Below, piece after piece: positions 23,893 to 46,019 of a stretch of DNA of 64,000 nucleotides. This stretch comes from Escherichia phage A4. Where the stretch lies: sequence record ON286972. One strand, 5' to 3'. Every line of letters begins with the position of its first letter. The stretch's first letter is position 1. Both the position numbers and the translations under genes were made by a program. Under the pieces are notes generated by a model. It saw only the letters and a list, made by a program, of their open reading frames with translations. It was not told where the DNA came from and made no database searches.

Positions 23893-23904
23893 CAAAAAAG
23901 AATA

Positions 23905-30303: not shown

Positions 30304-30515
30304 AGGAAATATCAAACCAAGAGTACTTAGAACTATTCAGAAAAAATAAGAACGAATATATGGCACTTGATACAAGAACTGATATAGGGGAACTTGAAAA
30401 AAATCTTTTGCGTTCAGAGATGATAGTACTGACACTCTTAGGAACACAGCACCAAGAGAGAACTGTTAATTCACACATAGAAATACTTAAGAAGCTTATA
30501 CAGGAAAAGATATGA
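30300..30515 (+). CDS. hypothetical small protein, family B
   Basis: ATGA overlap; motif LLGTQHQERT. Confidence 0.65.
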   Translation: MKEISNQEYLELFRKNKNEYMALDTRTDIGELEKNLLRSEMIVLTLLGTQHQERTVNSHIEILKKLIQEKI

Positions 30516-30733
30516 GAATCATAACACAACAAGATATTCTTAAGTTCACAAGGGTTCATGCATCTGAATTTGATGCTATATTATCAAAAAGTTACAACAA
30601 CCCTTATACAGAAGATGTACACTACAGTGAATTATGGGTGTATATACTTTTAGGTACAGATCATCAAGAGCAAGCAGTACAGAAGTATTTGTTAGCTTTA
30701 CGTGATGCTACTGCTAATGGAGTAGGTGTTTAA
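30512..30733 (+). CDS. hypothetical small protein, family B
   Basis: ATGA overlap; motif LLGTDHQEQA. Confidence 0.65.
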   Translation: MRIITQQDILKFTRVHASEFDAILSKSYNNPYTEDVHYSELWVYILLGTDHQEQAVQKYLLALRDATANGVGV

Positions 30734-30735
30734 AA

Positions 30736-31077
30736 ATGAAAACTAATATTCAACTCAAGGTATACATATCGTATGAAAATATATACATCAAAAGTAGTCT
30801 ATGTAAAGATGTAATGGACTACAAAGGTAAGCCATTCACAGTTACTTACAGTTCTACAGGAGGTTTATATATATCTTTTGCTAATTACGAAAATAATATG
30901 TACGAACACATTGACATTGAAGATTTAAGTACTTTATCAGAAGAGGAATACTTTCAGGAATCATTAGTCTGGGATTTAGAGTTTCCTATGCCATTAGTAC
31001 ATAAAATGATAGTACTAATAAAAGAAACTAAACAGGAGCCTCGTGATAATTATGAAGAACACATTATTGAGTATTAA
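30736..31077 (+). CDS. hypothetical acidic protein, paralog family C
   Basis: motif EEEYFQESLVWD. Confidence 0.65.
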   Translation: MKTNIQLKVYISYENIYIKSSLCKDVMDYKGKPFTVTYSSTGGLYISFANYENNMYEHIDIEDLSTLSEEEYFQESLVWDLEFPMPLVHKMIVLIKETKQEPRDNYEEHIIEY

Positions 31078-31089
31078 GAGTACTGAACC

Positions 31090-31320
31090 ATGAAAAGATT
31101 ATCATTCGAAGAGTACTGCAAGCTTATTAATACTTTACAACCACAAATACAACAAATAAATTCTCTTCCTATACCCCAAGAAGAACGTGCAGTACTGAAA
31201 GATGAGTTAATTTTAAAATGCACAGTAGGTACTAACTATCAAGCTGATAGTGTTCGTTATCTAATTTGGGGTTTAATGTGCATAATAGAGAACAAAGCAG
31301 TTGACAGTACTCTAATGTAG
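31090..31320 (+). CDS. hypothetical small protein, family B
   Basis: motif TVGTNYQADS. Confidence 0.65.
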   Translation: MKRLSFEEYCKLINTLQPQIQQINSLPIPQEERAVLKDELILKCTVGTNYQADSVRYLIWGLMCIIENKAVDSTLM

Positions 31321-31359
31321 TGCTATAGTACTTCTACGTTCTAATATAGGGTACAGATT

Positions 31360-31605
31360 ATGTTAAAATTTTTAAATTTCCTTATCGTCTTGTGTATTGT
31401 TCTTGGGATTGCACCGTTTGTATTAGCGTATCTGGATTCAGATGAAATGCACAAGATGAATTGCACAAAGACAGGACAGAGTAGAAAAGAGACGGTTATG
31501 ATGCCCGTAACGGTTATTGTGAATAATATGCCGATTACGAACATGATTCCTACCCTAACGACAACGTATCAGTACTCTTGCGATGACGGAGAGAGGTGGA
31601 GATGA
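31360..31605 (+). CDS. small predicted membrane protein
   Basis: N-term LKFLNFLIVLCIVLGIAPFVLAYL hydrophobic helix; 81 aa. Confidence 0.55.
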   Translation: MLKFLNFLIVLCIVLGIAPFVLAYLDSDEMHKMNCTKTGQSRKETVMMPVTVIVNNMPITNMIPTLTTTYQYSCDDGERWR

Positions 31606-31931
31606 CACGTAAATTCAATTGTATTGTCAGAGATAAAATCTGTTTCATTGCGTTGTCCAATTTCCAGAGCAATTCTGGGGTTAAGGTATTTGAGTACAAT
31701 AAAGTTGATAATTGTTTCTATTGGGTAGACGGTGTAAAATCCACAGGAAACAAGATTGCAGTACCGAATCTAGTTGATATCTCTGAAGAAGAAGAGTTTC
31801 AGTACAGTTTAGTACATGATGATTCTTTTGGATTTACGTTCAATGAAATGAAGGAAGTACAAAGGCAGATGATATCGTATAGTAATCTTCCAAAGCATTT
31901 CATACAAGATGTGCATAGAATTGTAATATAG
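31596..31931 (+). CDS. hypothetical acidic protein, family C
   Basis: motif EEEEFQYSLVHD. Confidence 0.65.
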   Translation: MEMTRKFNCIVRDKICFIALSNFQSNSGVKVFEYNKVDNCFYWVDGVKSTGNKIAVPNLVDISEEEEFQYSLVHDDSFGFTFNEMKEVQRQMISYSNLPKHFIQDVHRIVI

Positions 31932-31938
31932 GGGATAT

Positions 31939-32274
31939 ATGAAATTCAACATTCACCGAATTAATTCCGGTTGTATATTTGCTTATACGCATGAGAATTA
32001 CAAGAAGTACATGAATCATGAAGTACATTATGTTTTCGAGGACGGTAAAGAATATTTTGCTTATTTGAGTCCCAGGAGTTTAGGTAAGTACGAGTTGCTT
32101 CAGGATCTTTCTCTTATGCAGGAAGATGAATTATTTCAGTACAGTCTAATTCATGACCCTTATATGTTTGATATAGATATTATGTGCAGTTTACAGAAGA
32201 GGATGAAAGAAGTTTGGGATTCGATTAAAAGAGGTGATTGTATAGAATATGATAGTATACAAGAAGATGCCTAA
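31939..32274 (+). CDS. hypothetical acidic protein, family C
   Basis: motif EDELFQYSLIHD. Confidence 0.65.
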   Translation: MKFNIHRINSGCIFAYTHENYKKYMNHEVHYVFEDGKEYFAYLSPRSLGKYELLQDLSLMQEDELFQYSLIHDPYMFDIDIMCSLQKRMKEVWDSIKRGDCIEYDSIQEDA

Positions 32275-32467
32275 CGGATATGAATTGAAGTACAGACATT
32301 TTATTCGAAATGTAGAATCAGATCCTTTTAATGTTAAAATGGCAGAGTTCGATTTATTATTTTATCTAGGAACGAGAGCACAGCCACAATTCGTTGATGC
32401 ATACATAAGGGCTTTACGAACAGAGATAGTATGCACACCAAAGGAGTCTAAATGTACAAAAATGTAA
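32249..32467 (+). CDS. hypothetical small protein, family B
   Basis: motif YLGTRAQPQF. Confidence 0.6.
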   Translation: MIVYKKMPNGYELKYRHFIRNVESDPFNVKMAEFDLLFYLGTRAQPQFVDAYIRALRTEIVCTPKESKCTKM

Positions 32468-32709
32468 ACCATCATTTGTACGCATCAAAGTACAGGGATT
32501 TTTGTTTACAAGGGGGCGATGAAGATTTTGCTTTGCGATTATCGGAATTTAATATGTTATTTTATCTTGGTACATCAGTACAAGAAGAAATGGTACAGAA
32601 ATTTATCAAGCACCTTGAACGAAAAATTCATACGCAAATTTTGGTTGTTAAGTTACAGAATGAGATAAATGAATACAATGCAGAATCTAACAGTAGTACA
32701 GGATCTTAG
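32452..32709 (+). CDS. hypothetical small protein, family B
   Basis: motif YLGTSVQEEM. Confidence 0.6.
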   Translation: MYKNVNHHLYASKYRDFCLQGGDEDFALRLSEFNMLFYLGTSVQEEMVQKFIKHLERKIHTQILVVKLQNEINEYNAESNSSTGS

Positions 32710-33070
32710 ACCAGTAATAATGATGTTAAATGCAAGACGAGATTTATGGCACGAAATGCATAACAACAAGGATTCATTTGCACAAATCAATTTAGTCTTT
32801 CAGGAGTTAATCCAGAGTGCATTGGATGTTATAGTACCAAAATACAAAGATGGTATATTCTGTGTAAAGAATGCAGTTCGTCCTCATGCAATTCCAAGGA
32901 AAATTAAGTTAGCCAGATTAACATTTGACGAGAGGGATTTCTTCAGTTATAATCCCAGTACAGCTTTATATTTTATTCCTGATTCAGACAAATATCATCC
33001 TATCCATTACGGATGGATTATGTCGTATGTAGTGAATGAAACGGAATACCCTATTAAATGGGAAAGATGA
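32669..33070 (+). CDS. hypothetical protein
   Basis: 133-aa ORF; only weak LVFQELIQS resemblance to family C. Confidence 0.5.
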   Translation: MNTMQNLTVVQDLRPVIMMLNARRDLWHEMHNNKDSFAQINLVFQELIQSALDVIVPKYKDGIFCVKNAVRPHAIPRKIKLARLTFDERDFFSYNPSTALYFIPDSDKYHPIHYGWIMSYVVNETEYPIKWER

Positions 33071-33255
33071 TGATAGATGCAAAGACATTAAATGCATTAA
33101 ATGCATTACAGGATTCATTATTAGATAGTATTAAGCTGTATTACAATATGCATTTGAGGGGTGGTATCAATGATTACAATTATTATTTGAGTGTAATTAT
33201 ATTTGAGCATCTTTCAGTACAGGATAGAATTTTACACAAGTACAAACATTATTGA
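33067..33255 (+). CDS. hypothetical small protein
   Basis: ATGA overlap; 62 aa. Confidence 0.5.
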   Translation: MMIDAKTLNALNALQDSLLDSIKLYYNMHLRGGINDYNYYLSVIIFEHLSVQDRILHKYKHY

Positions 33256-33266
33256 GGAAACAAAAT

Positions 33267-33617
33267 ATGTTCAATAAAATCATGTTCATTTTAACATTTG
33301 TGTTTTTATCATTTATAAACACCGCACATACAGCACAGGCATCATCGGATGTACCGTTATATGAAACATACAAATTTGATTGCAGATTACAGAATAATGA
33401 AATAATCAATATCTTTTTACACAATACAGAAGTACCTTATTTGCAGATTGAAGCAACGAAGTACATGTATTATGGTACGAATTCAGTACAGGAATTTTTA
33501 TTCAAACACACCAATCAGGATGTAATTATATCATTGCAGTACGTTGATAGTTCATTGTCTTTAATGCATTTCAAGAATGCAGAGGGATTAGTTACAGTGC
33601 TCAAATGCTATAGGTAA
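33267..33617 (+). CDS. predicted secreted protein (signal peptide) with family B-like GTNxxQ segment
   Basis: MFNKIMFILTFVFLSFINTAHTAQA signal-like N-term; YYGTNSVQEF echoes family B motif. Confidence 0.6.
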   Translation: MFNKIMFILTFVFLSFINTAHTAQASSDVPLYETYKFDCRLQNNEIINIFLHNTEVPYLQIEATKYMYYGTNSVQEFLFKHTNQDVIISLQYVDSSLSLMHFKNAEGLVTVLKCYR

Positions 33618-33623
33618 TAATAT

Positions 33624-34139
33624 ATGAATGAAATTGAATTATTAACGCACAAGATTAGTACAATAATGCTTATGCTCAAAAATAATCATCCTATACATAA
33701 GTACATTGATATAGATGAATTACGCATAGAAGATAGGCATGGTAAATTATCGTTTATGTTTCACAATGCAAATAATGCAGGGAATGTTAACGTTTGTATT
33801 GCAGCATTTACCCAAGCCAATCCAGTACAAACATCTCCTGTTGTATACGAAAATAAAGAAGGGTATTTGTGGGTAAACACAAACGATTATTTCTTTTATG
33901 ATTTGAAACAAGATGATGAAGTAGAAGAACGAATTGATTTAATTGATATTAGTACAGATTGTAGTGCTGAATTATTTCAGAAATCGTTATTATATAGTCC
34001 TCGTCAAATGCATTATCTAAAGTTATTCAGTTCATTGTACGCGAATCCTTTAATTAAGGGTTTTAAATTTTATATAAAAGTTCCTGACATTCAAGCAGTT
34101 TATGATATTTTGATGCAAGGATATAGTTATGAAGTATAA
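33624..34139 (+). CDS. hypothetical acidic protein, family C
   Basis: motif AELFQKSLLY. Confidence 0.65.
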   Translation: MNEIELLTHKISTIMLMLKNNHPIHKYIDIDELRIEDRHGKLSFMFHNANNAGNVNVCIAAFTQANPVQTSPVVYENKEGYLWVNTNDYFFYDLKQDDEVEERIDLIDISTDCSAELFQKSLLYSPRQMHYLKLFSSLYANPLIKGFKFYIKVPDIQAVYDILMQGYSYEV

Positions 34140-34437
34140 AATGCTTTATACAAAAGATATGATTTATGTTGAATTAGAAGGCGATGAAGACGGTTGGAAT
34201 TTGATTTATTCAAGTAGTTCAGGTTGGTACATGGCACATTTAAATGATAACGAAGTTACAGATTATTTTGTAGATTTCAATACATTATCAGACGAAGAAT
34301 TGTTTCAACAGCAATTAGTGATTGACACGGGTGGTTATGATGTGTTATTATTAAAAAAGATACAGAAAGCTGTTATGAATTTTAATGCCCAAGTATCCGA
34401 ATGGGAAAGGAAATATTATGACCTCGAAGTACAATAA
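34129..34437 (+). CDS. hypothetical acidic protein, family C
   Basis: motif DEELFQQQLVID. Confidence 0.6.
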   Translation: MKYKMLYTKDMIYVELEGDEDGWNLIYSSSSGWYMAHLNDNEVTDYFVDFNTLSDEELFQQQLVIDTGGYDVLLLKKIQKAVMNFNAQVSEWERKYYDLEVQ

Positions 34438-34786
34438 TACATTTGATATTAATAAGTTAACAGAATGGTTTTATAATATTGAAATTGAAGCTATTCCGTA
34501 TCACAAGTACGAACAACGTGATTTGCGTAGTATAGATATTCGTGAGTTGTACGAGTATTATCAGAGTGCATTAGAGATGCATAAGATATTTTTGAGTACA
34601 GAATACATGACACGTTGTAATGATGCGTTTGATGAATTCAAGAAGAATGATAATTTAGTACAGAAATATGTAATAGCAAAGTACATGTACCTTCAGGGAA
34701 TTACAAGTATAGTGGAATTCAATACAGTTCTTGCTTTAGTTGAGATTATTTTATTATGCAAAAATGTAAAGTGGAATTTAGTTTAG
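34418..34786 (+). CDS. hypothetical protein
   Basis: ATG 34418 after AAAGGAAA SD; no family motif. Confidence 0.55.
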   Translation: MTSKYNNTFDINKLTEWFYNIEIEAIPYHKYEQRDLRSIDIRELYEYYQSALEMHKIFLSTEYMTRCNDAFDEFKKNDNLVQKYVIAKYMYLQGITSIVEFNTVLALVEIILLCKNVKWNLV

Positions 34787-35253
34787 AGAGTGCTGTACAG
34801 TACGTTAAGTACATTGAAGGTGTATACAATATAATGAAAGCATATGAAGGAAAAGGATATGCTTCAATAAATCACAAATATGATTACATCAACAATCAGT
34901 TAGAAGAATCAAATTCAGGTAAAGTGCTTTTTAGTTTTTTATATTTTGCTCCTGACAATGTATATCCTGATGAAGATGATCTTCGTCTGGATAGAGATGA
35001 CCTGTGGTATATGTATCCAGGACGTGATAAGCCAATGGATGATGCTTTGTTGGAAATCAAATACAGTACAGAACCATTGACACCGGAGTTGTGGTTCCAG
35101 TACAGTACAATACATGAAGAAATTGATATCTTTTTCTACGCAATATACAAGATGCTTTATGAGAATGGTGTGCTTAAGAATCATGTATATTTTTATTTCC
35201 AGCAAATGAAAAATGTATATGAGTCCTTTTACCCAACCGAGCCTGTATCGTAA
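34756..35253 (+). CDS. hypothetical acidic protein, family C
   Basis: motif PELWFQYSTIHEE. Confidence 0.6.
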   Translation: MQKCKVEFSLESAVQYVKYIEGVYNIMKAYEGKGYASINHKYDYINNQLEESNSGKVLFSFLYFAPDNVYPDEDDLRLDRDDLWYMYPGRDKPMDDALLEIKYSTEPLTPELWFQYSTIHEEIDIFFYAIYKMLYENGVLKNHVYFYFQQMKNVYESFYPTEPVS

Positions 35254-35278
35254 GATATGGGCTTTTTTCGTTTTGGTA

Positions 35279-35307
35279 TTGACATAGAAGACCAAAGCTG
35301 TTATCAT
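35279..35307 (+). promoter_or_regulatory. sigma70-like internal promoter in family C array
   Basis: TTGACA 35279-35284, 17 bp, TATCAT 35302-35307; AAAGGAGA SD then ATG 35334. Confidence 0.55.
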
Positions 35308-35333
35308 GTGTATTCATTTTAAAGGAGACATTT

Positions 35334-35858
35334 ATGGCGAGTTTCATGATCCCAAGTACATACGAAGATGCATCAAGTGCAGTGTATAAGGTTCATTATA
35401 TTTTTAATTTAATTATTAGTGCATCAAAAAATAAAATGTATGCACCTCTTGTGAAATATGATAAAAATGAGGAAATTTTTGTTAGCACAGAACAAACGAT
35501 TTTTCCATATTTCAAAGAAGATAGATTGTGGTTCATGCATTCAGTCGTATTACAAAGATATAATATAACAAGGTCCAATGAGCATGATTATTTGGATATA
35601 CAATTAGATCAACCCGATATTGGAGAGGATGAATATTTTCAGTACAGCACAGTACACCACCATGAAGATATCTTTGCTGCTATGCTTATTGCTAAATTGA
35701 ACACCGTTGATTTGGAGCAGCACAAATACAATAATAAATCATGTAAGATCATAATCCCTGCATTCATTGCTCTTTATGATTACATTGTGCATAACAAAAA
35801 AGATGATACCTATGCTTTCAATGAAGAGTATTTGGATTTTTTTAAGGAGAACATATGA
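35334..35858 (+). CDS. hypothetical acidic protein, family C
   Basis: motif EDEYFQYSTVHHHED. Confidence 0.7.
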   Translation: MASFMIPSTYEDASSAVYKVHYIFNLIISASKNKMYAPLVKYDKNEEIFVSTEQTIFPYFKEDRLWFMHSVVLQRYNITRSNEHDYLDIQLDQPDIGEDEYFQYSTVHHHEDIFAAMLIAKLNTVDLEQHKYNNKSCKIIIPAFIALYDYIVHNKKDDTYAFNEEYLDFFKENI

Positions 35859-36379
35859 GCAGTTCAACAATACAGAAAGCAATGACATTCAATGAAATTG
35901 GTGCATTTAAAGATAAGATTATTGATTGTATTGAATACGCGATTTGTAGTAATATCAAAAGTATAGAGGTATTTAACAAGTCAAATCGCTCTTACCATAT
36001 GATGTACATTGCAAACAATAATGGTATCATTCCATTTGTTTCGGATAGTACAATATGGTTCGCTTGCGATGTGAAAAAATACACAATAGGTTCATATGTC
36101 TTCGGTAAACATGGTGATCTAATTATTCCTGAGCATTGTATGCAAGAAGAAGAATATTTTCAAAAGCAATGTGTACATGAACCATTAGAGATGGTTGCTT
36201 TATATATGATACCTTATATCTCTAAATGTGTTCATGAGAATAAAGCTCCGTGGAATCATGAATTTGTATCGTTGAAGTTATTGTATAATGTTTTAGTACA
36301 ATATTATGATTACAGGCACAATGGTACAATCAGTGATGTATGGGATTTCGAAAATTTAAGGGTAAGTACATATGCATAA
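35855..36379 (+). CDS. hypothetical acidic protein, family C
   Basis: ATGA overlap; motif EEEYFQKQCVHE. Confidence 0.65.
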   Translation: MSSSTIQKAMTFNEIGAFKDKIIDCIEYAICSNIKSIEVFNKSNRSYHMMYIANNNGIIPFVSDSTIWFACDVKKYTIGSYVFGKHGDLIIPEHCMQEEEYFQKQCVHEPLEMVALYMIPYISKCVHENKAPWNHEFVSLKLLYNVLVQYYDYRHNGTISDVWDFENLRVSTYA

Positions 36380-37010
36380 TTTTCCCAGAAATGCTTCACC
36401 GTATGAGGTGATGAAGTTCATGGAGCCTCATGTTCCTTATATGTTTGAAATGCTAAAGAAGTTCAATGCTATTTTCCCTGAGAATTCAAAATTGGAGATT
36501 CCATTTGATTCCGCATCCAGATACAGTGCATCCTGTGGTAAATTAGTTTTAGTTATCGGTAGTGACAGAATTGGTTTCAGGGAAGTATTTGACACGTCAT
36601 TAGCATTTGGTATATTCGATAACAACAATAACATCACATACATTGACAAGTACATTTGCGACATAGCAGGTTCCTCTAAGCCTGATTCCTTTGTGGATTC
36701 AGTTGCAGATTATGGTGTTTCAAAAGATGGTAATGTAATAAGTACAAAGACGTTCATATCATTATCGTTAGAAGATGACATATGTTACATTGCAGGTCAA
36801 GAGTACGAGGGTGTAGAGGAAGTGCTTTTTCAAATGTCCTTAGTACAGAAGGATATGGTGGACCCTACCGAAATCCTGAAGTTGTGCAAATATGCGAATG
36901 AGTACAAGAAATTGATTGAACCTGGGTTTAGTTTCAGTGCACAGAGTCCACATTTTCAGATAAAAGTATATGAAGATTTCATTTTGAAGTTAAAAGAGAT
37001 TGTGTTATAA
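36372..37010 (+). CDS. hypothetical acidic protein, family C
   Basis: motif EEVLFQMSLVQKD. Confidence 0.65.
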   Translation: MHNFPRNASPYEVMKFMEPHVPYMFEMLKKFNAIFPENSKLEIPFDSASRYSASCGKLVLVIGSDRIGFREVFDTSLAFGIFDNNNNITYIDKYICDIAGSSKPDSFVDSVADYGVSKDGNVISTKTFISLSLEDDICYIAGQEYEGVEEVLFQMSLVQKDMVDPTEILKLCKYANEYKKLIEPGFSFSAQSPHFQIKVYEDFILKLKEIVL

Positions 37011-37062
37011 TACGCTATAACATGCAATAACACACAATACAACAAAGACGGGAGTGATTGAT

Positions 37063-37599
37063 ATGATCCAGCACAAACATTTTGAGTACGAGTTCGCTGA
37101 CAATTTAGTAAAAATCGTACAGGCGTTTGAGGCTGGGGATTTTGACCACATCTATCCTAAGCACAAGGAAGGATGGCTTGAGCCTAAGAGCGATATTGAA
37201 CAGTATCCCTCTATTGTGTATTACAGGAGAGATACGGTAATGCACGCTGTAGGTGAGAAGATGCAGTTAGAGTATTGTCTTTTGTTCAATGCTATTACAT
37301 CGGCTACATCAGCATCTGAAGAGTTCGCTCCAGTGAATTGGATTCGTTATTTGGATATGAGCAAGAGAGAGGAAGAAACCTTTTTTGGTTTAACAAAGCA
37401 CGTTGATATTGCAACCTTAAATCCTAACATCCTGAGTCCTGAAGAATATTTTCAGGAGTCCTTAGTACAAGATCCTTATGTTTTACAGGTGCAGCAAGTA
37501 TATAATGTATTACGTGCTAATGTGAAAACGAATTTCTTTTTAGCTTTAACGTGGTACGATAGGTTAGTAAAAGATCTCAAAGAGATTAAGGGGGAGTAA
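37063..37599 (+). CDS. hypothetical acidic protein, family C
   Basis: ATG 37063 after GGGAG SD (GTG 37054 alternative); motif PEEYFQESLVQD. Confidence 0.6.
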   Translation: MIQHKHFEYEFADNLVKIVQAFEAGDFDHIYPKHKEGWLEPKSDIEQYPSIVYYRRDTVMHAVGEKMQLEYCLLFNAITSATSASEEFAPVNWIRYLDMSKREEETFFGLTKHVDIATLNPNILSPEEYFQESLVQDPYVLQVQQVYNVLRANVKTNFFLALTWYDRLVKDLKEIKGE

Positions 37600-38165
37600 T
37601 GCTGGACCTTCAGGACATAGAAAGTACATGCAAAGTGATAGAAGATGATTTAGAATACATCAAGGGGTTGTATTTAATTGTAGATAGGATTTACAAAAAT
37701 CCGAATGCGTTTCAGGAAACGTACCAGCATGATAAATTTCGTCACGATGCAATCATTACGCTTATGTCGGATTTATCGATTTACGAAAGAAAATCCAACA
37801 AATCACATAGTGTATTATTTGTGAGTACAGATAGATTTTACAGTACAACATCAATTTGTTCAGATGTATCATGTGCATGGTTCAGTTCAAATGAATATAT
37901 AACAGTTAAAAATAATGGCGAAAATGAGAAATTAAAAGTAAGTGAGCTTATTGATTTGATGCCATATAGTCCTGATGTAGTGTTTCAGTACAGTACATTG
38001 CACGATTATAATTCAATACGATATCGTTATTTTGTTAAGCATTATTATGATACCTTCGGGGAGTTAACGGAGAAGTTAACGTTGAGATTTGACAGAGATA
38101 TCGATCTCGTTGCATTGAATCAGTACCTTCAGGAAGTGTTTGATATAAACGCGGAAAAGGGGTAA
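37599..38165 (+). CDS. hypothetical acidic protein, family C
   Basis: motif PDVVFQYSTLHD. Confidence 0.65.
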   Translation: MLDLQDIESTCKVIEDDLEYIKGLYLIVDRIYKNPNAFQETYQHDKFRHDAIITLMSDLSIYERKSNKSHSVLFVSTDRFYSTTSICSDVSCAWFSSNEYITVKNNGENEKLKVSELIDLMPYSPDVVFQYSTLHDYNSIRYRYFVKHYYDTFGELTEKLTLRFDRDIDLVALNQYLQEVFDINAEKG

Positions 38166-38379
38166 TTTTAAAATGATAAATATAGGCTTGTTTTTGGGGG
38201 CGTTTTGGGGGGTCAAAAAAATTTTCGCTGAAAAACATGTTAAGGTATATGTTTAATATAAAATTTTATATTGTGTTTTTCAGAGTACAGTTCATGTTTC
38301 CTTAAACAAAAAATACCCCCCGCCGCCGAACGTGCTCCTTATATTGGAGTTTACCTTATTAATTATAGTAGAGGTTATT

Positions 38380-38736
38380 ATGAGCAATGATTTTGCTATT
38401 CACAGTTTTTTCTACAAAAAGGTTGAGTTCTATTGTAATCTCGTTAAGGGTGATACCAATCATTCGTTGGACCAATATATTAAGTACACCTCAAATGGAT
38501 TTTCTTTTGTTGATTACGGTCGAGTTGGTGGTGGTGTTAATGAACCTATGCTGGACTATACAGAAATGGATGAGGCTACTCTATTTCAGGAATCATTAGT
38601 GTTCGATAAGAAATATATTTGTACACTAGATGAAGTTATTGGTATTCAGAATATCATGAAAGAATACTCTGCGAAGTGCATGATGGAATTAACTCAAGAT
38701 AAGCACAAGACTGTTCAGTGCTATTTCAATCTTTAG
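38380..38736 (+). CDS. hypothetical acidic protein, family C
   Basis: ATG 38380 after AGAGG; motif EATLFQESLVFD. Confidence 0.6.
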   Translation: MSNDFAIHSFFYKKVEFYCNLVKGDTNHSLDQYIKYTSNGFSFVDYGRVGGGVNEPMLDYTEMDEATLFQESLVFDKKYICTLDEVIGIQNIMKEYSAKCMMELTQDKHKTVQCYFNL

Positions 38737-38747
38737 GGGTCTTAACT

Positions 38748-39092
38748 ATGACATACAATGAATACCGTGAAATAGATCTTCTCCAGAATACATTATATGA
38801 AATTGAAGATTTAATGCACGGATGGACAAGTCTTTCTTTCTTTAATGAAATGTTCGAAGAAATAAAAGTAGTACTACAGAAAAAACATAATGGTACTAAA
38901 ATTAAAATAAAGACTTTCACTGGAGAAGTCTGGTGCGGAGAAATTGTGAAATACATTATAACTCGCAATAACGCATCATTCTGTTTGAATACTGGTCATT
39001 ACAGAAATCATTTCAACAATAGCAGTACTCAAGTTATTTCCGAGGAAGAATACAATGAGCACTGTAATAAACTTCTTAAGAGTAGATTCTAA
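38748..39092 (+). CDS. hypothetical protein, divergent family C-like
   Basis: Acidic EEEY stretch present but the FQ dyad is missing. Confidence 0.5.
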   Translation: MTYNEYREIDLLQNTLYEIEDLMHGWTSLSFFNEMFEEIKVVLQKKHNGTKIKIKTFTGEVWCGEIVKYIITRNNASFCLNTGHYRNHFNNSSTQVISEEEYNEHCNKLLKSRF

Positions 39093-39418
39093 TGAATACT
39101 AAAATATATGTTTCTTCAAGTACAATGGGAAGTGGTTTTACTTATACGTGCTTTTTTACTACATTGAATAAAACACCTATATTGATTATTCGTGATTTCA
39201 ATGAATGTAATATTGAGTACGTATCCAAAACAGATAAGCTTCCTAATTACATCGAATGTGAATACATGGAGAACTATGAAAGTTTTATATTTCAGGAATC
39301 ATTAGTATGGGATAAAGAAATCGATTTCTTTATGTACCTTGCATTACAAAAGTACTACAGAGATAACAAGGACAAAATAGTTCGTTCTTGCATTTATTCT
39401 ATTAATCTGGAGTACTGA
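39092..39418 (+). CDS. hypothetical acidic protein, family C
   Basis: motif ESFIFQESLVWD. Confidence 0.65.
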   Translation: MNTKIYVSSSTMGSGFTYTCFFTTLNKTPILIIRDFNECNIEYVSKTDKLPNYIECEYMENYESFIFQESLVWDKEIDFFMYLALQKYYRDNKDKIVRSCIYSINLEY

Positions 39419-39588
39419 TGCTTAAAAAAGAACAAATGGAATCATTAATGAATGCAGTTATTCGTCGTTTTGTTAAAGACATTAGTCATAAAAACTGTAT
39501 TACAAATGACAGGTACGGTATAGAATTGTATATAGCTAATATTCACATGGCGTACAGAGAATATATTAAGACACGTCACAGGGGTTGA
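39418..39588 (+). CDS. hypothetical small protein (56 aa)
   Basis: ATGA overlap; hand-translated MLKKEQMESLMNAVIRRF...TRHRG. Confidence 0.45.
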   Translation: MLKKEQMESLMNAVIRRFVKDISHKNCITNDRYGIELYIANIHMAYREYIKTRHRG

Positions 39589-39589
39589 A

Positions 39590-40072
39590 ATGAGTTTAGA
39601 AAGTGCATTGAAAGAAGCAAAGAAGATTCATGAGTACATGAATATGGCAAAAGAAGGTTCAGTTTACGGTATTTTCAAAGACACAAGTACTCAATATTAT
39701 GTCTCTGATAACCTCATTGATAATGACTTCCCAGATACAGAAACGTGCGTACTAGATACCGACCCTAATGATTATGAATGTTTCATTGATATGCATAATG
39801 AGTACATGGTCTATGTTAATGATGGAGATATTACCATCTACAGTACTGTCCACGATACCGATGACATTATAATTCCGTGTGCAGTACTGGATGGTCCTTG
39901 GGATAGTGAAGAGTATTACTTCCAACAAAGTACTGTATACAATGAAGAAGAACTTGATTGTATTGTAATTATGTGGTACTTTAAAAGTATTGGTTCTGAG
40001 AACTTCTATTTCGATTACAGATACGTAAAGAAAACTGTAGATAACGGTATTAATAAACTTCACAGGGGTTGA
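39590..40072 (+). CDS. hypothetical acidic protein, family C (subfamily MSLxSAL, copy 1)
   Basis: motif SEEYYFQQSTVYNEEE; closely related to next three genes. Confidence 0.7.
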   Translation: MSLESALKEAKKIHEYMNMAKEGSVYGIFKDTSTQYYVSDNLIDNDFPDTETCVLDTDPNDYECFIDMHNEYMVYVNDGDITIYSTVHDTDDIIIPCAVLDGPWDSEEYYFQQSTVYNEEELDCIVIMWYFKSIGSENFYFDYRYVKKTVDNGINKLHRG

Positions 40073-40073
40073 A

Positions 40074-40544
40074 ATGAGTTTAGAAAGAGCATTAGAGATT
40101 GCGAAGTTAATTGATTTATGCAGCAAAGAAATTGTATCAAATTGTCTCAATGGATATCTATTCAAGGAAGGTAAATCATATTGTCGAATGATATACGATG
40201 ACAGTAGTGAATATATTCATATGTATGAAGAAAATTTAGATTCTTCTGAAACAACACTCATTGGATGTGATGTTAATTTGGAAGATAATTACATGTACTT
40301 CTGTCGTGATGCTGATATTTTAATCCAAGATTCATTTATTCAAACAGGTGCACCAGAGGTATATATTCCGTATTCAGTACTGGATAATGACTGGGGAAGT
40401 GAAGAGTTCTACTTCCAGCAGAATACTATCTACGAGGAAGATGTGCTTGACAAGCTTGTCATTCTGTGGTACTTTAACAACACTGATTGTCCTAGCTTCT
40501 ATATGGACTTGGATCTATTACGAGTTATAAAAGAGGATATATGA
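40074..40544 (+). CDS. hypothetical acidic protein, family C (copy 2)
   Basis: motif SEEFYFQQNTIYEED; upstream junction cacaggggttgaaatgagtttagaa duplicated. Confidence 0.7.
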   Translation: MSLERALEIAKLIDLCSKEIVSNCLNGYLFKEGKSYCRMIYDDSSEYIHMYEENLDSSETTLIGCDVNLEDNYMYFCRDADILIQDSFIQTGAPEVYIPYSVLDNDWGSEEFYFQQNTIYEEDVLDKLVILWYFNNTDCPSFYMDLDLLRVIKEDI

Positions 40545-40984
40545 GTTTAGTAAGTGCACTTGAACTGGCACACAAAATACATCACTTCCACGATAACATA
40601 AAAAGTGGGTTCTATGGTGATAAAGTAAGTGCTTTTGGTAATGAGTATTATCTATCAGGTATAAAGACATACTCTGCTGATATTTTACTTATGGGTCATG
40701 ATAAAGACAATACTATACAGTACTCTTCATGTAGTCAATATACTAGTTTTATGGTATATATTCCAGGTACTAAGATTACTTTTGACACATCAAATTCACC
40801 TGTTGACTTCGGGGTACTTGATGGCCCGTGGGGTACTGAAGAGTATTACTTCCAACAGAGTCTCATTTTTAACCAAGAAATGCTTGATTCCTTGGTTGTG
40901 TTGTGGTACTTTAAGGAATTGAATTTTGAACCATTCTTTCTTGACTGGGGAGCATGTGAATATTTAAGTACAGGGGATTTGTAA
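40541..40984 (+). CDS. hypothetical acidic protein, family C (copy 3)
   Basis: motif TEEYYFQQSLIFNQE. Confidence 0.7.
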   Translation: MSLVSALELAHKIHHFHDNIKSGFYGDKVSAFGNEYYLSGIKTYSADILLMGHDKDNTIQYSSCSQYTSFMVYIPGTKITFDTSNSPVDFGVLDGPWGTEEYYFQQSLIFNQEMLDSLVVLWYFKELNFEPFFLDWGACEYLSTGDL

Positions 40985-41439
40985 TGTCGTTACAAAGTGC
41001 ATTGAAAGAAGCAAAGAAGATTCATGAGTACATGATTAAGGTCAAAGGTGGAGAAATTCCAGGTATCTTCAAAATGTCAGAGACTGAATATTGCACGAAG
41101 AATATTGAGGATTTTGATGGTTCTGATACATTAGTACTGCAATGTGATGATTATGATCATGATAATTGTGGTTATAACCCTTTGTACTACTTTATCAATT
41201 ACTACCCAGGGTCAGATATAACCGTATACAACCCTGATTATTATGCTAAAGATTTGACAATTCCGTTTTCAGTACTGGATGGTCCGTGGGATAGTGAAGA
41301 GTATTACTTTCAGCAAAGTACTGTATATACTGAACATGAACTCGATACTCTGGTCATTATGTGGTACTTTAAAAGTATAGATTCAACATGTTTCTATATG
41401 GATTATGAATACATAGAGACACAGAAATATAAGAGGTAA
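40984..41439 (+). CDS. hypothetical acidic protein, family C (copy 4)
   Basis: motif SEEYYFQQSTVYTEHE. Confidence 0.7.
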   Translation: MSLQSALKEAKKIHEYMIKVKGGEIPGIFKMSETEYCTKNIEDFDGSDTLVLQCDDYDHDNCGYNPLYYFINYYPGSDITVYNPDYYAKDLTIPFSVLDGPWDSEEYYFQQSTVYTEHELDTLVIMWYFKSIDSTCFYMDYEYIETQKYKR

Positions 41440-41444
41440 TTGTA

Positions 41445-41891
41445 ATGTTTTTTTATTATTATGAAGTAAATGATAAGTTGGTTCAGGATATTGTACAAAT
41501 AATCAAGTACTTCAATGATAATCCTAACGTATTGGGTAGTGAGCTTGAATACGAGAAAGGTGGGTGTGTATATTTTACTTTCTGTGGTGGGTGCTCGGAA
41601 GAGCAATCATTTTTCAATTCTTATTCAAATTACATCTCCTATAATGCACTTGCAGACGAGTTGATTGTGGTACGTGACAGTAGTGATGACCGTACAGTGT
41701 ATACCAGAGAGACAATACAAAGTGTAGGTAATGAAGAAGGATACTTTCAATTGAGTACAGTACTGAATCATGAAGAACTACATGTATTACGTTTGTTTTA
41801 TCTTATTAGTACTATGAACTTGAAGCACGATCAGGTATACATTGATTTAGATTACTTTGAGTACTTACGTAAGATTAGTTCTAAAAAATAA
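41445..41891 (+). CDS. hypothetical acidic protein, family C
   Basis: motif EEGYFQLSTVLNHEE. Confidence 0.65.
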   Translation: MFFYYYEVNDKLVQDIVQIIKYFNDNPNVLGSELEYEKGGCVYFTFCGGCSEEQSFFNSYSNYISYNALADELIVVRDSSDDRTVYTRETIQSVGNEEGYFQLSTVLNHEELHVLRLFYLISTMNLKHDQVYIDLDYFEYLRKISSKK

Positions 41892-41901
41892 GTTCATGCT
41901 A

Positions 41902-41929
41902 TTGACAAGAGCCTGTACTGTGTTACAAT
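41902..41929 (+). promoter_or_regulatory. sigma70-like internal promoter
   Basis: TTGACA 41902-41907, 16 bp, TACAAT 41924-41929. Confidence 0.5.
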
Positions 41930-41963
41930 GCACAGTAATATTAATTAAAAAGGTGCACATGAA

Positions 41964-42497
41964 ATGATTATTAATGCTTACAATGCTGAGGAAATGCAGG
42001 AATTATCTCGTAAAATCAACATTATAGTTCCTTTGCTTAAGGATTGCAGTACTGGTTTGATTCCATCACGAGACATTATTAAAGAAGGATACTACCTACA
42101 GGCAGTCTATAAGGGTGGTACATTTCATCGTTGTCGTGTATTACGTGATGGCCTTCCTGCACTTACACTCATTGGTATTGGTATTGCCGTATGCGGTACG
42201 AACCGTTTGTACTTGAATGAAAAAAATCAAATCATGAATTTGTTTTATACAGGAAAAAGTACTGAATTATATTTTGGTATTCAGAACTGGTGGGATACCG
42301 TAAAGAGTAGTACTATTGAAATCCCGAAATACAATTACAACTCATTTGAAGAGCAGATGTTTCAATTGTCATGTACTGATGACATGTACATGATTCTACG
42401 TCTCTATATGGAGATGCAAATGAACTTCAGAAGTAATTTATACATTGATACTTCAACATTTGAATTCGAAGATGTATTCGTTGATGGTATATTATGA
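41964..42497 (+). CDS. hypothetical protein, family C
   Basis: motif EEQMFQLSCTDD. Confidence 0.65.
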   Translation: MIINAYNAEEMQELSRKINIIVPLLKDCSTGLIPSRDIIKEGYYLQAVYKGGTFHRCRVLRDGLPALTLIGIGIAVCGTNRLYLNEKNQIMNLFYTGKSTELYFGIQNWWDTVKSSTIEIPKYNYNSFEEQMFQLSCTDDMYMILRLYMEMQMNFRSNLYIDTSTFEFEDVFVDGIL

Positions 42498-42721
42498 AGT
42501 ATATTCCAAAACACCAGTACTACAGGATGTGTTCTGACATTTACACAAAATGGAATACATTTCATCCCCTTTTGAAGAAGAGGCGTCCATATCATGATTA
42601 TAAGTTGAATCATTTTCTTGGAACTAATTATCAAGAGGTTGTAATGAAAGATTACATTTTTAACCTTCAGAAATTAATTCAGAATAAAGTTCAAGGAAAG
42701 GGGGAGTCCACGTGGGTATAA
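42494..42721 (+). CDS. hypothetical small protein, family B (inside family C array)
   Basis: ATGA overlap; motif FLGTNYQEVV. Confidence 0.65.
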   Translation: MKYIPKHQYYRMCSDIYTKWNTFHPLLKKRRPYHDYKLNHFLGTNYQEVVMKDYIFNLQKLIQNKVQGKGESTWV

Positions 42722-42918
42722 GACACAGAGACATGCAAGATATTCTTAACCAATACAGTGCTCAAATGTTCACTGCAATCAGGTCTTCCAATCAAAATGA
42801 CGTGTCGGAATTACAGTTACTGATGTACATAGGGACACAATACCAGGAGGCTTCAGTTGAGACGTATATTAAGTACCTATTGGGTATTATAAGGATGAAA
42901 AATGGACAATACTTTTGA
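42712..42918 (+). CDS. hypothetical small protein, family B
   Basis: motif YIGTQYQEAS. Confidence 0.6.
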   Translation: MGIRHRDMQDILNQYSAQMFTAIRSSNQNDVSELQLLMYIGTQYQEASVETYIKYLLGIIRMKNGQYF

Positions 42919-43138
42919 ACAAGCACCAGCATCGGATTTTAGTTATGGGTTTATTATAGATATATTTTCTGGTACTGAAGCATCTGATATACCTCTTTAT
43001 ATCTTTGCTAATATGCGTTATATTTTTCGTATTGCAGAGGACAGTGATAAATCTGATATGTCTTTTATGATTAAAAAAATCATATACTTATCGTGCTATG
43101 AATATATGAATGAAATGAGCGAACACTATGACCTATGA
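42902..43138 (+). CDS. hypothetical protein
   Basis: 78-aa ORF; no family motif. Confidence 0.5.
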   Translation: MDNTFEQAPASDFSYGFIIDIFSGTEASDIPLYIFANMRYIFRIAEDSDKSDMSFMIKKIIYLSCYEYMNEMSEHYDL

Positions 43139-43676
43139 TGAGATAATTTCTTTTGCAAATAAGTTAAGTACACTAACCAAATTGACGGAAGTAGTACTGC
43201 AAGATGAGCGTATACTTTCTAGGAGTGAGCTAATTGTTTCACAAAACGATTCCATGACGTATATGTCTTTCAGATCGTCAGGCCGAACAATTATTAAGTT
43301 CGGTTCTGTTCCTGAAACAAATGGAAAATTATCTATGTGCACACATAATAATGGGGAATTGTATGGATTAGTGTACAGAAAAGATTCGACAGTACTGAAT
43401 ACTTTCAATGCAGGTGCGAGTGCAGTTGATGTTACATCATTGAGTGATGTTGACAAATACATAGATTTACCACACCTTGAAATTAATGAAGAAAGTGTTT
43501 TTCAGTTAAGTACAGTGCACAATGATATTGAAGTGTTTGGTATTTCTTTATGGAATATCCTTCGTTTAAGGGATGATGCTCCTGTATTTGTATATGCAAA
43601 TTATGAAGACATTGATACTTGTATTGATGAAATGGAGAAATACATTGATCAATTTAAACAAAACTTCCACATTTGA
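43128..43676 (+). CDS. hypothetical acidic protein, family C
   Basis: motif EESVFQLSTVHND. Confidence 0.65.
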   Translation: MTYDEIISFANKLSTLTKLTEVVLQDERILSRSELIVSQNDSMTYMSFRSSGRTIIKFGSVPETNGKLSMCTHNNGELYGLVYRKDSTVLNTFNAGASAVDVTSLSDVDKYIDLPHLEINEESVFQLSTVHNDIEVFGISLWNILRLRDDAPVFVYANYEDIDTCIDEMEKYIDQFKQNFHI

Positions 43677-44223
43677 TATTCACGAGAAAGCTAAGCTACT
43701 TATCAGTACTGCTGAATATTATTACGATACAGTACTGAGTCAATCACCTTCTACATTTCGTGATTTAGTTAAATCATTTAATAAAACACAAAAAGATTGT
43801 GAGCTTTCATATAATGGTGTGAACTTTATGTATATTAAACCATATATGTCAAAGCGTGATTTGATTAAATGCAATGATGATTTCAAGATTGATCGTGATT
43901 TAAATCGTTTCTTCTACGATGTAAGAAGCAATCTGTATCAACTTACATTAAATTCCAGTACTTCTTTCATTATTGGATTGGGTAAGAATTTAGGTACTGG
44001 TACTTCATTTTATAATAAAGGTGAAGTACAAGATGTGGATCTCAATCCAAGTACTGATGTTGCATTCCAACAGGATTTGATTATGGATGTGGATTCAGCA
44101 GCTACATACAGTTCTAATGTTCTGTGCAAGGAATTTCAGAATTCCAAAATTCTTGAGTTATTGTACATTGCGGATTGCAATATACTGTACAAATTTTGTA
44201 CTCATCTGAAGGAGATTTTATGA
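43645..44223 (+). CDS. hypothetical protein, family C
   Basis: Probable TTG start 43645 after GGAGA (ORF-track start 43573); motif TDVAFQQDLIMD. Confidence 0.5.
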   Translation: MINLNKTSTFDIHEKAKLLISTAEYYYDTVLSQSPSTFRDLVKSFNKTQKDCELSYNGVNFMYIKPYMSKRDLIKCNDDFKIDRDLNRFFYDVRSNLYQLTLNSSTSFIIGLGKNLGTGTSFYNKGEVQDVDLNPSTDVAFQQDLIMDVDSAATYSSNVLCKEFQNSKILELLYIADCNILYKFCTHLKEIL

Positions 44224-44588
44224 AAAAAGAAATTAGAATCCAATTCGGTATGAGGAAAAAAGAGGTCATTTGCACACTGAATCATGCGGTCGTGGAAAGG
44301 TTTGATGCATTACAAAAATTCTCCCATTTTGTTCTTGTACTATATGAAAATGGGTCTTTTAAAATCTTCACTTATGATGATTCAAAAAATTATCGTAATG
44401 ATTTTGTAAATCTTACAGTACTGTCAGAAGAGGAATTCTTTCAGGAAAGTACAGTCTGGGATTTACCAGGAGCACCAATTGAATACGTCCGTGCTACACA
44501 GGCAGAAATGATCAAAGCAATGCAGAACTATCCAGAAGATCATATGACTAAGTTTCCTGAATCTATTCATGTAGAGGTTGAGTACTGA
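44220..44588 (+). CDS. hypothetical acidic protein, family C
   Basis: ATG 44220 after GGAG, ATGA overlap; motif SEEEFFQESTVWD. Confidence 0.65.
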   Translation: MKKEIRIQFGMRKKEVICTLNHAVVERFDALQKFSHFVLVLYENGSFKIFTYDDSKNYRNDFVNLTVLSEEEFFQESTVWDLPGAPIEYVRATQAEMIKAMQNYPEDHMTKFPESIHVEVEY

Positions 44589-44926
44589 TGGATTTAGTAA
44601 AAGTTACTATAGCCAAACATCAGTACTATGTAATGATTGAGTTAGGTTATAACCACAAGAAAGAACATTTTTATTATCTTACATATGAAAAGAATATGTT
44701 CAAGATAATCACTAATAATTTAGCACGAGATGTATTTCATATTTTTGATTACAGTGATTATAGTGAGGAAGAGTTATTTCAGGAATCATTAGTATGGGAG
44801 TACAATAGAATTGTAGATATTGAAAAGTTAATTAAGTATCAACAACTAATGAAAGATATAATGAATAACTATCCATGTGAACTACAAAGAGAACTGGAAT
44901 TTATTGTCCAATACAAAGAGGTTTAA
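44588..44926 (+). CDS. hypothetical acidic protein, family C
   Basis: motif SEEELFQESLVWEY. Confidence 0.65.
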   Translation: MDLVKVTIAKHQYYVMIELGYNHKKEHFYYLTYEKNMFKIITNNLARDVFHIFDYSDYSEEELFQESLVWEYNRIVDIEKLIKYQQLMKDIMNNYPCELQRELEFIVQYKEV

Positions 44927-44928
44927 TT

Positions 44929-45465
44929 ATGTTAGATTATGACAGAATAGAGAAAGATGATTGGGACGGTACTCACCATTTAAAGGTTGACACTTTTGAA
45001 CACGCTCGCAGTACTGCTCAAGATCTTATGCAAATCCATGAGTTCATTTGTAATAACAGAGAGACTTCTATTTGGGTAAAATCTGACAGATTTATTGATT
45101 CAAGTTATGATTACTTCAGTATTCGTTCAAGAGGTCTGGATGATGACGGGTACAGTGTTGATATGTTCAATATCAACAAATTTAATGACCCTGAATATGA
45201 TCCAAAATACAGCGGTGGCTTTTTAAGTTATTCACCTGACTATGACAGAATAAAGTTCTTTTATGAAGAGGCAGACATTGTTATACCATTTATAGAAGAA
45301 GAACTTACCGAAGAACTGTTCTTTCAGATGAGTACTGTTGACGACCCGTACATAGTTGGTGTACAATTCATGTTCTCTTGGCTTAAACAGAATAACTTCC
45401 CTCCTTTTTATGTTGACCTTACTTTTTACGATCTAATTTGGAATTTTGTTCGTAATCCATCTTGA
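44929..45465 (+). CDS. hypothetical acidic protein, family C
   Basis: motif TEELFFQMSTVDDP. Confidence 0.65.
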   Translation: MLDYDRIEKDDWDGTHHLKVDTFEHARSTAQDLMQIHEFICNNRETSIWVKSDRFIDSSYDYFSIRSRGLDDDGYSVDMFNINKFNDPEYDPKYSGGFLSYSPDYDRIKFFYEEADIVIPFIEEELTEELFFQMSTVDDPYIVGVQFMFSWLKQNNFPPFYVDLTFYDLIWNFVRNPS

Positions 45466-45490
45466 CACCTCCTTCTGTGCATGATATAAT
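45462..45490 (+). promoter_or_regulatory. sigma70-like internal promoter
   Basis: TTGACA 45462-45467, 17 bp, TATAAT 45485-45490. Confidence 0.6.
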
Positions 45491-45521
45491 CTTTTTCATC
45501 TAATACGAAAAGGATCATATC

Positions 45522-46019
45522 ATGCAATTCAATCCTGAACTCTCATACAGTAATGCTATAACTTTTGCAGACAATTTAATTCGCATTCATAACTTTTTAA
45601 GAGATGTTGAAACTAATTTTGACGTTACATATGTGGACCCCAAAAGTGGAGAGATGTTTACCGATACAGTACAGGTATCCAGTATTCTGTCATTTCGTAT
45701 GCATATGCTATACAGCAAAGTTGAAGCACATAATAATGTAAGAATTCTTGGTTCGTCATTCTTTGGATTCAATGCGAAAGCGAAAGGTACACTTCGTTTT
45801 TATAAAGAATTTTTGGAGTGCGAAGAGATAGATCTCATTGATATCAATGATGAGTGTGAATACTTTCAGTACTGCACAATCTATTCAGAAGATGTGGTTT
45901 TTGCATTAACTGCAATATCTGAATTGCATAAAAAATTACCACCAGATGCCCAATTTTACTTTGACCTTAGTGATTATGATATCATGTTGGATCATATTAA
46001 TCGTGTAGGAGAATTGTAA
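45522..46019 (+). CDS. hypothetical acidic protein, family C
   Basis: motif ECEYFQYCTIYSED. Confidence 0.7.
   Translation: MQFNPELSYSNAITFADNLIRIHNFLRDVETNFDVTYVDPKSGEMFTDTVQVSSILSFRMHMLYSKVEAHNNVRILGSSFFGFNAKAKGTLRFYKEFLECEEIDLIDINDECEYFQYCTIYSEDVVFALTAISELHKKLPPDAQFYFDLSDYDIMLDHINRVGEL

Follow-up and report, generated by a model that had tools for sequence, protein, structure and literature searches.

The 64,000-nucleotide stretch analysed here (hereafter the window) is drawn from a plastic region of the genome of Escherichia phage A4, a 121Q/PBECO4-like jumbo coliphage (Asteriusvirus) with a genome of 355 kb (355,528 bp), and contains at positions 39590–41439 four consecutive plus-strand genes, C1 to C4, of a family designated family C. 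The explanation that we consider likely as a whole is that these genes are old and diverged paralogs of the phrog_9317 family, that the array to which they belong is still being remodelled, and that their products are early, non-virion proteins that bind or inhibit host targets. The evolutionary part of this explanation, according to which homologous and unequal recombination at the short, conserved ends of the genes keeps an old tandem family in flux, is held with greater confidence than the whole.

The genomic setting is one of marked variability. Downstream of ~26 kb the window consists, almost without interruption, of small plus-strand genes. All the matches of a megablast search with positions 39000–42000 are to jumbo phages of the 121Q/PBECO4-like (Asteriusvirus) type from E. 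coli and Salmonella; their identity is 84–91% and no more than 61% of the query is covered by any record. Over positions 30000–46000 just 27–44% of the sequence is matched in any relative.

Four diverged copies of one family

The open reading frames (ORFs) of the block lie back to back, and each aligns over its full length with the phrog_9317 profile (positions 1 to ~155 of 160): C1 at 39590–40072 (160 amino acids, E 4.5e-61; 100% identical to A4_354), C2 at 40074–40544 (156 amino acids, E 7.4e-55), C3 at 40541–40984 (147 amino acids, E 1.1e-54), whose start overlaps the end of C2 by 4 nt, and C4 at 40984–41439 (151 amino acids, E 3.8e-47). Since these are full-length matches with E-values of 4e-47 to 5e-61, the homology is far above chance, and four tandem genes of one family are indeed present, as the original prediction had it. 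The same prediction called the copies near-identical, and this they are not: their pairwise global protein identity is 27–49%, the top value being that of C1 and C4 (49%), and their DNA identity 59–67%. Among all pairs of plus-strand ORFs of at least 50 amino acids in the window the local protein identity does not exceed 54%, the two pairs to which the prediction had drawn attention being the most similar ones (53–54%); nothing in the window resembles a recent duplication.

The four genes resemble each other at their beginnings, over the first ~14–20 codons (42 nt at 71–90% identity), and in a C-terminal block of 101 nt (74–87% nucleotide identity; repeat family D2), whereas the ~75 codons in between are only 44–50% identical. 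In C1 this block occupies positions 39884–39984 and carries the element [ST]EExYFQxS, with F111-Q112 encoded at 39920–39925; the equivalent plus-strand blocks of the other genes lie at 40377–40477, 40814–40914 and 41272–41372. The longest exact runs that C1 has in common with C2, C4 and C3 measure 28, 42 and 21 nt, respectively, and the terminal blocks of C1 and C4 are 82–87% identical in nucleotides. The strings AKKIHEYM and VLDGPWDSEEYYFQQSTVY..IMWYFK, which had been attributed to all four genes, occur exactly in C1 and C4 only, their counterparts being IAKLIDLC and VLDNDWGSEEFYFQQNTIY..ILWYFN in C2 and LAHKIHHF and VLDGPWGTEEYYFQQSLIF..VLWYFK in C3.

Duplications older than the 121Q-like phages

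The orthologous block was compared in phages 121Q, JP4, PBECO4, fEgEco12, SP27, ph0011, JNE01 and UE-S1. Each of the window copies has a positional orthologue (P1 to P4), and most relatives possess a fifth member, P5, that A4 lacks. The amino acid identity is 76–80% between C1 and P1 of JP4, 121Q, PBECO4 and SP27, 87–92% between C2 and P2 and 86–97% between C3 and P3; C4, with just 58–61% identity to P4, is a divergent P4 allele. In a neighbour-joining tree built with 40 members of the family (nine genomes) the sequences group by position (P1–P5) and not by genome, C4 being placed as the sister of the clade P1+P4. This grouping implies that the copies arose before the phages diverged and have not been homogenised as wholes, so that the duplications are older than the split of the 121Q-like phages. 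In the gene middles the synonymous divergence (synonymous substitutions per synonymous site, dS) of paralog pairs has reached saturation.

The block seems to have another composition in the lineage of JNE01 (L007, Escherichia phage vB_EcoM_JNE01): this phage and Turkey5 give just two tblastn matches to C1, and the three family C-like genes that JNE01 carries at 3561–5520 are very divergent, their branches falling either outside the P clades or at the base of these.

Recombination at conserved gene ends

A tblastn search with C1 through 35 related phage records yields matches at five places in 25 of them, at four in seven and at two in three. A clear case is contig L010 (GCA_036253495.1; 352,052 bp), which is 97–98% identical to window positions 36503–45439 and has three copies in the order orf56-C1-C3-C4, C2 being gone. 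Its C3 gene is preceded by what in A4 is the C1|C2 junction and opens with the C2-type ATGAGTTTAGAAAGAGCA before continuing as C3; its first 18 nt are those of C2, and this places the crossover within the first ~18 nt of the genes. Such a structure is exactly what remains when the conserved starts of C2 and C3 undergo an unequal crossover and one unit (467 nt) is lost in frame. A second case is offered by fEgEco12 and ph0011, which lack P1 and in which the orf56 homologue adjoins P2 through the very junction that in A4 flanks C1 on both sides; this junction therefore marks the boundaries between presence and absence of copy 1.

The distribution of dS along the genes is mosaic. For codons 1–20, the gene middle and the C-terminal block, respectively, dS amounts to 0.11, 2.26 and 0.80 for C4 versus SP27 P4, 0.18, 3.0 and 0.66 for C1 versus C4, 0, 0.21 and 0.60 for C2 versus 121Q P2, and 0.51, 0.22 and 0 for C3 versus 121Q P3, all of these being noisy estimates from 20–44 codons. 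The comparison of P4 with P5 is saturated in the first 20 codons and, as a consequence, constraint alone cannot account for the pattern. The 5′ end of C1 is a patchwork that looks like a mixture of P2-type and P4-type starts, and 7 of the ~45 differences between C1 and its P1 orthologues fall within the first 27 nt (P about 0.01, for a 27-nt segment picked post hoc, after the data had been viewed). That C4 might be a fusion of P4 and P5 was tested through the dS of the C-terminal block and the similarity of the tail: the C-terminal tail of C4 is like that of P5 of SP27 and fEgEco12 and the dS of the block is 0.45 versus P5 and 0.80 versus P4, the nucleotide signal being weak.

Relatives begin to resemble A4 at the C1 start codon (in the fEgEco12 group at the orf56 start) and cease to do so 20 nt short of the C4 stop codon, while the flanking regions differ among the A4, 121Q-type and fEgEco12-type genomes; to judge from these limits, the family C block behaves as a set of cassettes amid unrelated flanks.

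Taken together, these comparisons of genomes demonstrate that recombination at the conserved gene ends still remodels the array. The substrates are the ribosome-binding junction with the first ~20 codons of the genes and the block that encodes the C-terminal motif; homologous and partly unequal recombination at these short common segments gives rise to whole-unit losses, cassette swaps and mosaic genes. Wherever the direction of a change can be worked out, it is a loss or a swap, the losses being those of C2 (in L010), of P1 (in the fEgEco12 group) and of P5 (in A4). Thus, of the earlier proposal that unequal recombination or gene conversion drives array growth, the recombination is upheld by the loss of C2 in L010, the differing copy numbers and the mosaic dS, whereas the growth is contradicted by the grouping of the copies by position, the saturated dS in mid-gene and the direction of the changes that can be polarised. 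The comparison of copy numbers among isolates, which had been put forward as a check, shows that they do differ (5, 4 and 2, and 3 in L010) and gives no sign of growth.

The repeated junction

The junction said to be repeated in front of the genes at 39590 and 40074 is indeed there: CACAGGGGTTGAAATGAGTTTAGAA has just two occurrences in the window (39577 and 40061), the number expected from shuffled sequences being 0. The identity is exact over 25 nt and extends to 46 nt with four mismatches (42/46; repeat family D5). The first copy, J1 (39564–39609, plus strand), comprises the tail of orf56, the Shine-Dalgarno-like AGGGG and the first 20 nt of C1; the second, J2 (40048–40093, plus strand), comprises the tail of C1, AGGGG and the first 20 nt of C2. 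The 56-amino acid orf56 (39418–39588, plus strand) lies upstream of C1, and its 3′ tail forms the left half of J1. Its product is 64% identical in amino acids to that of fEgEco12 g115, a gene that sits directly before P2, and its final ~27 nt are similar to the 3′ tail of P1/C1.

The long form of J2 is also found in L009, a 121Q-like five-copy Logan contig, and a short form, without 9 nt, in 121Q, PBECO4 and UE-S1. The long P1|P2 junction in L009 and the P1-like tail of orf56 hint at an older replacement that had its end within a gene of the P1 type. Conversion of the A4 C1|C2 junction by the orf56|C1 junction was also considered; with the long form present in a 121Q-like contig, such an A4-specific event is unnecessary and was discarded. 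The “duplicated junction” is accordingly a substrate or a footprint of recombination and not the scar of a fresh duplication.

A repeated junction had been reported for family B as well and was found at 28279–28319 and 28494–28534, with one mismatch. Family B (phrog_4148) occupies 26365–30733 of the plus strand with ~20 adjoining or overlapping ORFs of 65–96 amino acids that have in common the motif [LF]LGT[ND][YH]Q[ED]xxV near the C terminus. Its most similar pair (28287–28511 and 28502–28765), with the 41-nt junction in common, is 54% identical, and two members (42494–42721 and 42712–42918, plus strand) lie within the array described in the next section.

A superfamily built around an invariant Phe-Gln pair

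Family C turns out to be one subfamily of a much larger group. An iterative search with a hidden Markov model (HMM) seeded with C1–C4 converged at 42 plus-strand ORFs that span 30736–59539 (~29 kb), an array of at least 42 genes delineated by this search together with a motif scan and an alignment (A1). A further plus-strand ORF, at 53154–53726, has an FQLS motif (LFQLSLL) at the usual position and was not recruited by the HMM, so that 42 represents a lower bound. In alignments of 51 (A1) and 45 (A2) sequences the only invariant residues are the initiator Met, one Phe and the Gln next to it, and a Ser two positions further on is found in at least 90%. The signature [ST]-E-E-x-[YLHF]-F-Q-x-S-[TL]-[VIL]-[YH]-[DNS], which ~51 residues separate from the C terminus, was recognised in 158 of the 168 relatives collected, and C1–C4 all display it in the form SEE(Y/F)YFQQ(S/N). 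The proteins are acidic in 41 of the 42 members (median isoelectric point 4.76, net charge −11), the charge of the family C proteins being −12 to −22.

The distribution of the superfamily is narrow. A HMMER scan of 1.84 billion representative proteins returned only 183 clusters, all of single-domain proteins of 39–212 amino acids, and a word-indexed homologue search with the superfamily alignment gained just two distant proteins. The named matches come from Escherichia phages and from assemblies of ~350-kb contigs labelled as E. coli only, while the matches in BFVD are uncharacterised proteins of phages RaK2, GAP32, Serratia BF and Yersinia fHe-Yen9; the members are thus small single-domain proteins confined to RaK2-like jumbo phages. 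PHROGs divides them among many uncharacterised families (phrog_9317, 12674, 28549, 28680, 22855, 34636 and others), and our search of the literature for the family, its motif and the structure of the array found no description of them.

The AlphaFold2 model of C1, obtained with the paralog alignment, has a predicted local distance difference test score (pLDDT) of 91 and a predicted template modelling score of 0.85 and consists of a long N-terminal helix, seven β-strands and then C-terminal helices. The F-Q pair is placed in a short helix that starts at the S-E-E element, and this element would act in the model as a helix cap. A structural search with the model found no solved relative and matched only uncharacterised proteins of RaK2-like jumbo phages, an outcome which indicates that the RaK2-like phages have the superfamily in common.

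Within the array, a 470-amino acid protein (51130–52542, plus strand; phrog_8572) contains the signalling domain of methyl-accepting chemotaxis proteins (PF00015, E 4e-37), an unusual domain for a phage.

Expression and possible role

Near-consensus σ70-like sites, for which a match at 11 or more of the 12 hexamer positions was required, total 36 on the plus strand and four on the minus strand and are mostly found in gaps, 30–60 nt upstream of starts. Within the array the intergenic ones lie in the gaps at 35279, 41902, 45462 and 50525. The closest strong intergenic site upstream of C1–C4 (35279–35307, plus strand) reads TTGACA-17-TATCAT with an upstream TG and is located in a gap (35254–35333) with a terminator-like hairpin (35239–35264) upstream, whereas the site at 41902–41937 (plus strand), TTGACA-16-TACAAT with a TG, overlies a hairpin (41916–41937) in a 72-nt gap one gene downstream of C4. 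In the related phage PA5oct a block of mostly uncharacterised genes is strongly transcribed early, and 32 putative TTGAC/TATAATA promoters lie around transcription start sites (PMC7318152). Searches of the literature for phage A4 and for transcriptomes of 121Q-like phages found none. The many σ70-like promoters of the region argue for early expression, and the genes are probably transcribed early by the host σ70 RNA polymerase.

As to the location of the proteins, the virion proteome of phAPEC6 has no entry between gp347 and gp549 (PMC7247149) and the P1 orthologue of this phage, gp442c, falls within that gap. The family C proteins are strongly acidic and would be non-virion and cytoplasmic; their acidity, their probable absence from the virion and the promoter-rich region provide no more than indirect hints of a possible role in host range or immune evasion.

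The picture suggested by the alignments and the model is that of a conserved scaffold, made of the N-terminal helix and of the C-terminal helices around the invariant F-Q-x-S, that would bear a hypervariable, β-rich middle. With such an organisation, the proteins most likely bind or inhibit host targets as a diversified set; the paralogs would differ in specificity and serve host takeover or counter-defence, and we propose that it is because of these different specificities that the copies are kept diverged instead of being homogenised. A specific role in host interference or counter-defence must be regarded as tentative, being somewhat less probable than its opposite.

A bolder version, to which we assign only a small chance, is that the 42-plus genes constitute a library of host-targeting proteins with a new fold, in which the motif is a common docking or processing site for one partner and recombination prunes the library. 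Each paralog would then be linked to this partner through the motif and the hypervariable β-domain would pick different host targets, e.g., defence proteins, while recombination at the gene ends would shuffle and prune the library between co-infecting phages. The [ST]EExYFQxS element resembles the ExxYxQ recognition pattern of 3C/TEV-type proteases. If this version is true, the array would be to a bacterial virus what the multigene families for immune evasion are to large DNA viruses of eukaryotes.

Alternative explanations

The original prediction amounts to a gene accordion, i.e., to a recent and ongoing tandem amplification of near-identical copies in a growing array. The head-to-tail layout, the 46-nt junction in common, the exact 42-nt run and the 82–87% identical terminal blocks of C1 and C4 and the differing copy numbers of the isolates are what an accordion would produce; in view of the 27–49% amino acid identity, the saturated dS of the gene bodies, the positional orthologues of every copy in distant isolates, the lack of any window pair above 54% and the losses that make up the polarisable events (those of C2, P1 and P5 listed above), it is very improbable. 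An error of assembly, with repeats collapsed or expanded and a wrong copy number, has a negligible probability, since the repeats are far shorter than reads (the longest exact one between copies is 42 nt, the overall DNA identity being 59–67%) and colinear orthologous blocks occur in more than 30 independently assembled genomes; furthermore, an independent metagenome contig (L011) matches 40883–45440 at 98.5%. The similar gene ends might also reflect functional constraint only, exerted by the Shine-Dalgarno sequence, translational coupling, the N-terminal helix and the core motif, in which case no recombination between copies would be needed. Indeed, the junction contains a stop/start arrangement along with the Shine-Dalgarno-like AGGGG, ACAGGGGATTTGTAATG is found at the C3|C4 junction too, and the N-terminal helix and FQxS block are conserved at the protein level throughout the family. 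Constraint does not explain, however, why P1, P4 and C4 differ so little at synonymous sites over their first 20 codons (dS 0.1–0.4) when P4 and P5 are saturated over the same segment, why the similarity runs ~20 nt into the coding tails of orf56 and C1, which are otherwise unrelated genes, or why the endpoints of deletions and indels fall exactly in conserved segments, and we deem it unlikely that constraint is the whole answer.

With respect to function, the proteins could instead be virion-internal or ejected proteins, members of toxin-immunity arrays (SUKH/Imm-like) or DNA mimics of the Ocr/ArdA type. They are, in fact, small and strongly acidic, polymorphic-toxin immunity loci consist of tandem arrays of diverged paralogs, and elsewhere in the window there is a weak, sub-threshold Pfam match to the papain-fold toxin Tox-PL-2 (11099–11596, plus strand, E 0.002). 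Similarity in fold or sequence to the SUKH/Imm or Ocr/ArdA families was looked for and not found, and a function of this kind appears improbable.

Old, recombining paralogs that act on host targets remain our preferred explanation, and a number of points weigh against it. The early-expression component rests on the promoter consensus and on the analogy with PA5oct, and between 35.3 and 41.9 kb there is no strong intergenic promoter-like site, only sites within coding sequence. Among the data on recombination, the dS values are noisy, the 27-nt segment at the start of C1 was a post hoc choice, and the direction of the events, loss as opposed to gain, was assigned by parsimony. The iterative HMM might in principle drift, though the motif argues against drift. 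Scans of C1–C4 and their neighbours against Pfam, NCBIfam and PADLOC gave no usable match; the AlphaFold model of the minimal, 112-amino acid member (44588–44926) is poor (pLDDT 63), and a fold common to the entire superfamily rests on sequence profiles and on the BFVD matches. Finally, the invariant F-Q-x-S may be a purely structural folding core.

Relation to known systems and significance

The A4 array is a viral multigene family within a plastic and probably early region. The multigene families MGF360, 505 and 110 of African swine fever virus are likewise tandem, diverged paralogs in variable regions whose copy number shifts among isolates by unit deletions, and their products, which are non-structural, presumably target the host, as those of family C would. 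Family C is also like them in that its paralogs are diverged and in tandem, lie in a variable region and vary in number among isolates by insertion or deletion of units, unit deletion included; it differs in belonging to a bacterial virus and in the unrelated fold of its proteins. In the gene accordions of poxviruses (K3L amplification) the copies are recent and nearly identical. In family C, as in these accordions, recombination between repeats alters how many copies of a viral gene stand in tandem; in contrast, its copies are 27–49% identical in amino acids, their orthologues are found in more than 30 genomes instead of being absent from close relatives, the duplications are ancient and the only change seen is contraction.

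The nearest analogue is provided by the hyperplastic regions of T4-type phages, in which small early genes are shuffled as conserved promoter/stem-loop (PeSL) cassettes recombine with each other (Arbiol et al. 2010, PMC2839356; Comeau et al. 2014, PMC4122927). In both cases blocks of small, mostly uncharacterised genes, which in A4 too would be non-essential and early, lie behind strong σ70-like promoters, and close relatives differ by insertion, deletion and replacement through short conserved flanking sequences; the low fraction of positions 30000–46000 matched in relatives (27–44%) is that of an accessory region which varies among close relatives. Unlike those of the T4-type regions, the joints of family C fall where the coding sequences of the paralogs begin and at their ribosome-binding junctions, no promoter and stem-loop cassettes being found at them, and the genes of the window form one huge paralogous superfamily, whereas the T4-type genes are unrelated ORFans.

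Large families of paralogs that inflate the genome, as the A4 superfamily does, are known from other jumbo phages: nearly 10% of the gene products of RaK2 are paralogues (PMC3622015), and further expansions peculiar to individual lineages are the subject of a jumbo-phage survey (PMC7824862). RaK2-like jumbo phages spend a large share of their genome on uncharacterised paralogs, and the superfamily of at least 42 genes is a testable candidate for the “extra” functions that enlarge these phages. Within it the family C block is a clean natural example of array turnover, one-unit crossover included, in which crossovers within ~20–45 nt of conserved gene-start sequence remove or swap whole cassettes between isolates that are otherwise 97–98% identical. 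For annotation, it is a warning that common gene starts and ends are not proof of recent duplication.

Other features of the window

No tRNA genes were found in the window. The GC skew is negative across 1–4 kb, in contrast to the rest of the window, and a tandem family of plus-strand ORFs of ~60 amino acids, whose members are 37–47% identical, occupies 1143–3351 (e.g., 1337–1516 and 1525–1704, 2762–2950 and 2960–3160). A weak, sub-threshold Pfam match to a protein kinase is seen at 20552–21136 (plus strand, E 0.002).

At 15817–24100 the plus strand carries at least 11 copies of a cassette of ~55–75 nt in which a near-perfect σ70 promoter (TTGACA-16-TATAAT) is followed by a GC-rich hairpin (GGGGAGAA..TTCTCCCC), and these cassettes resemble the PeSL of T4-type phages. 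An 83-nt plus-strand repeat, present in three copies of 66–96% identity (17836–17918, 21145–21227 and 23904–23986), contains a hairpin that overlaps a TTGACT...TATTAT promoter-like site, and there may be a small transcript downstream of these repeats.

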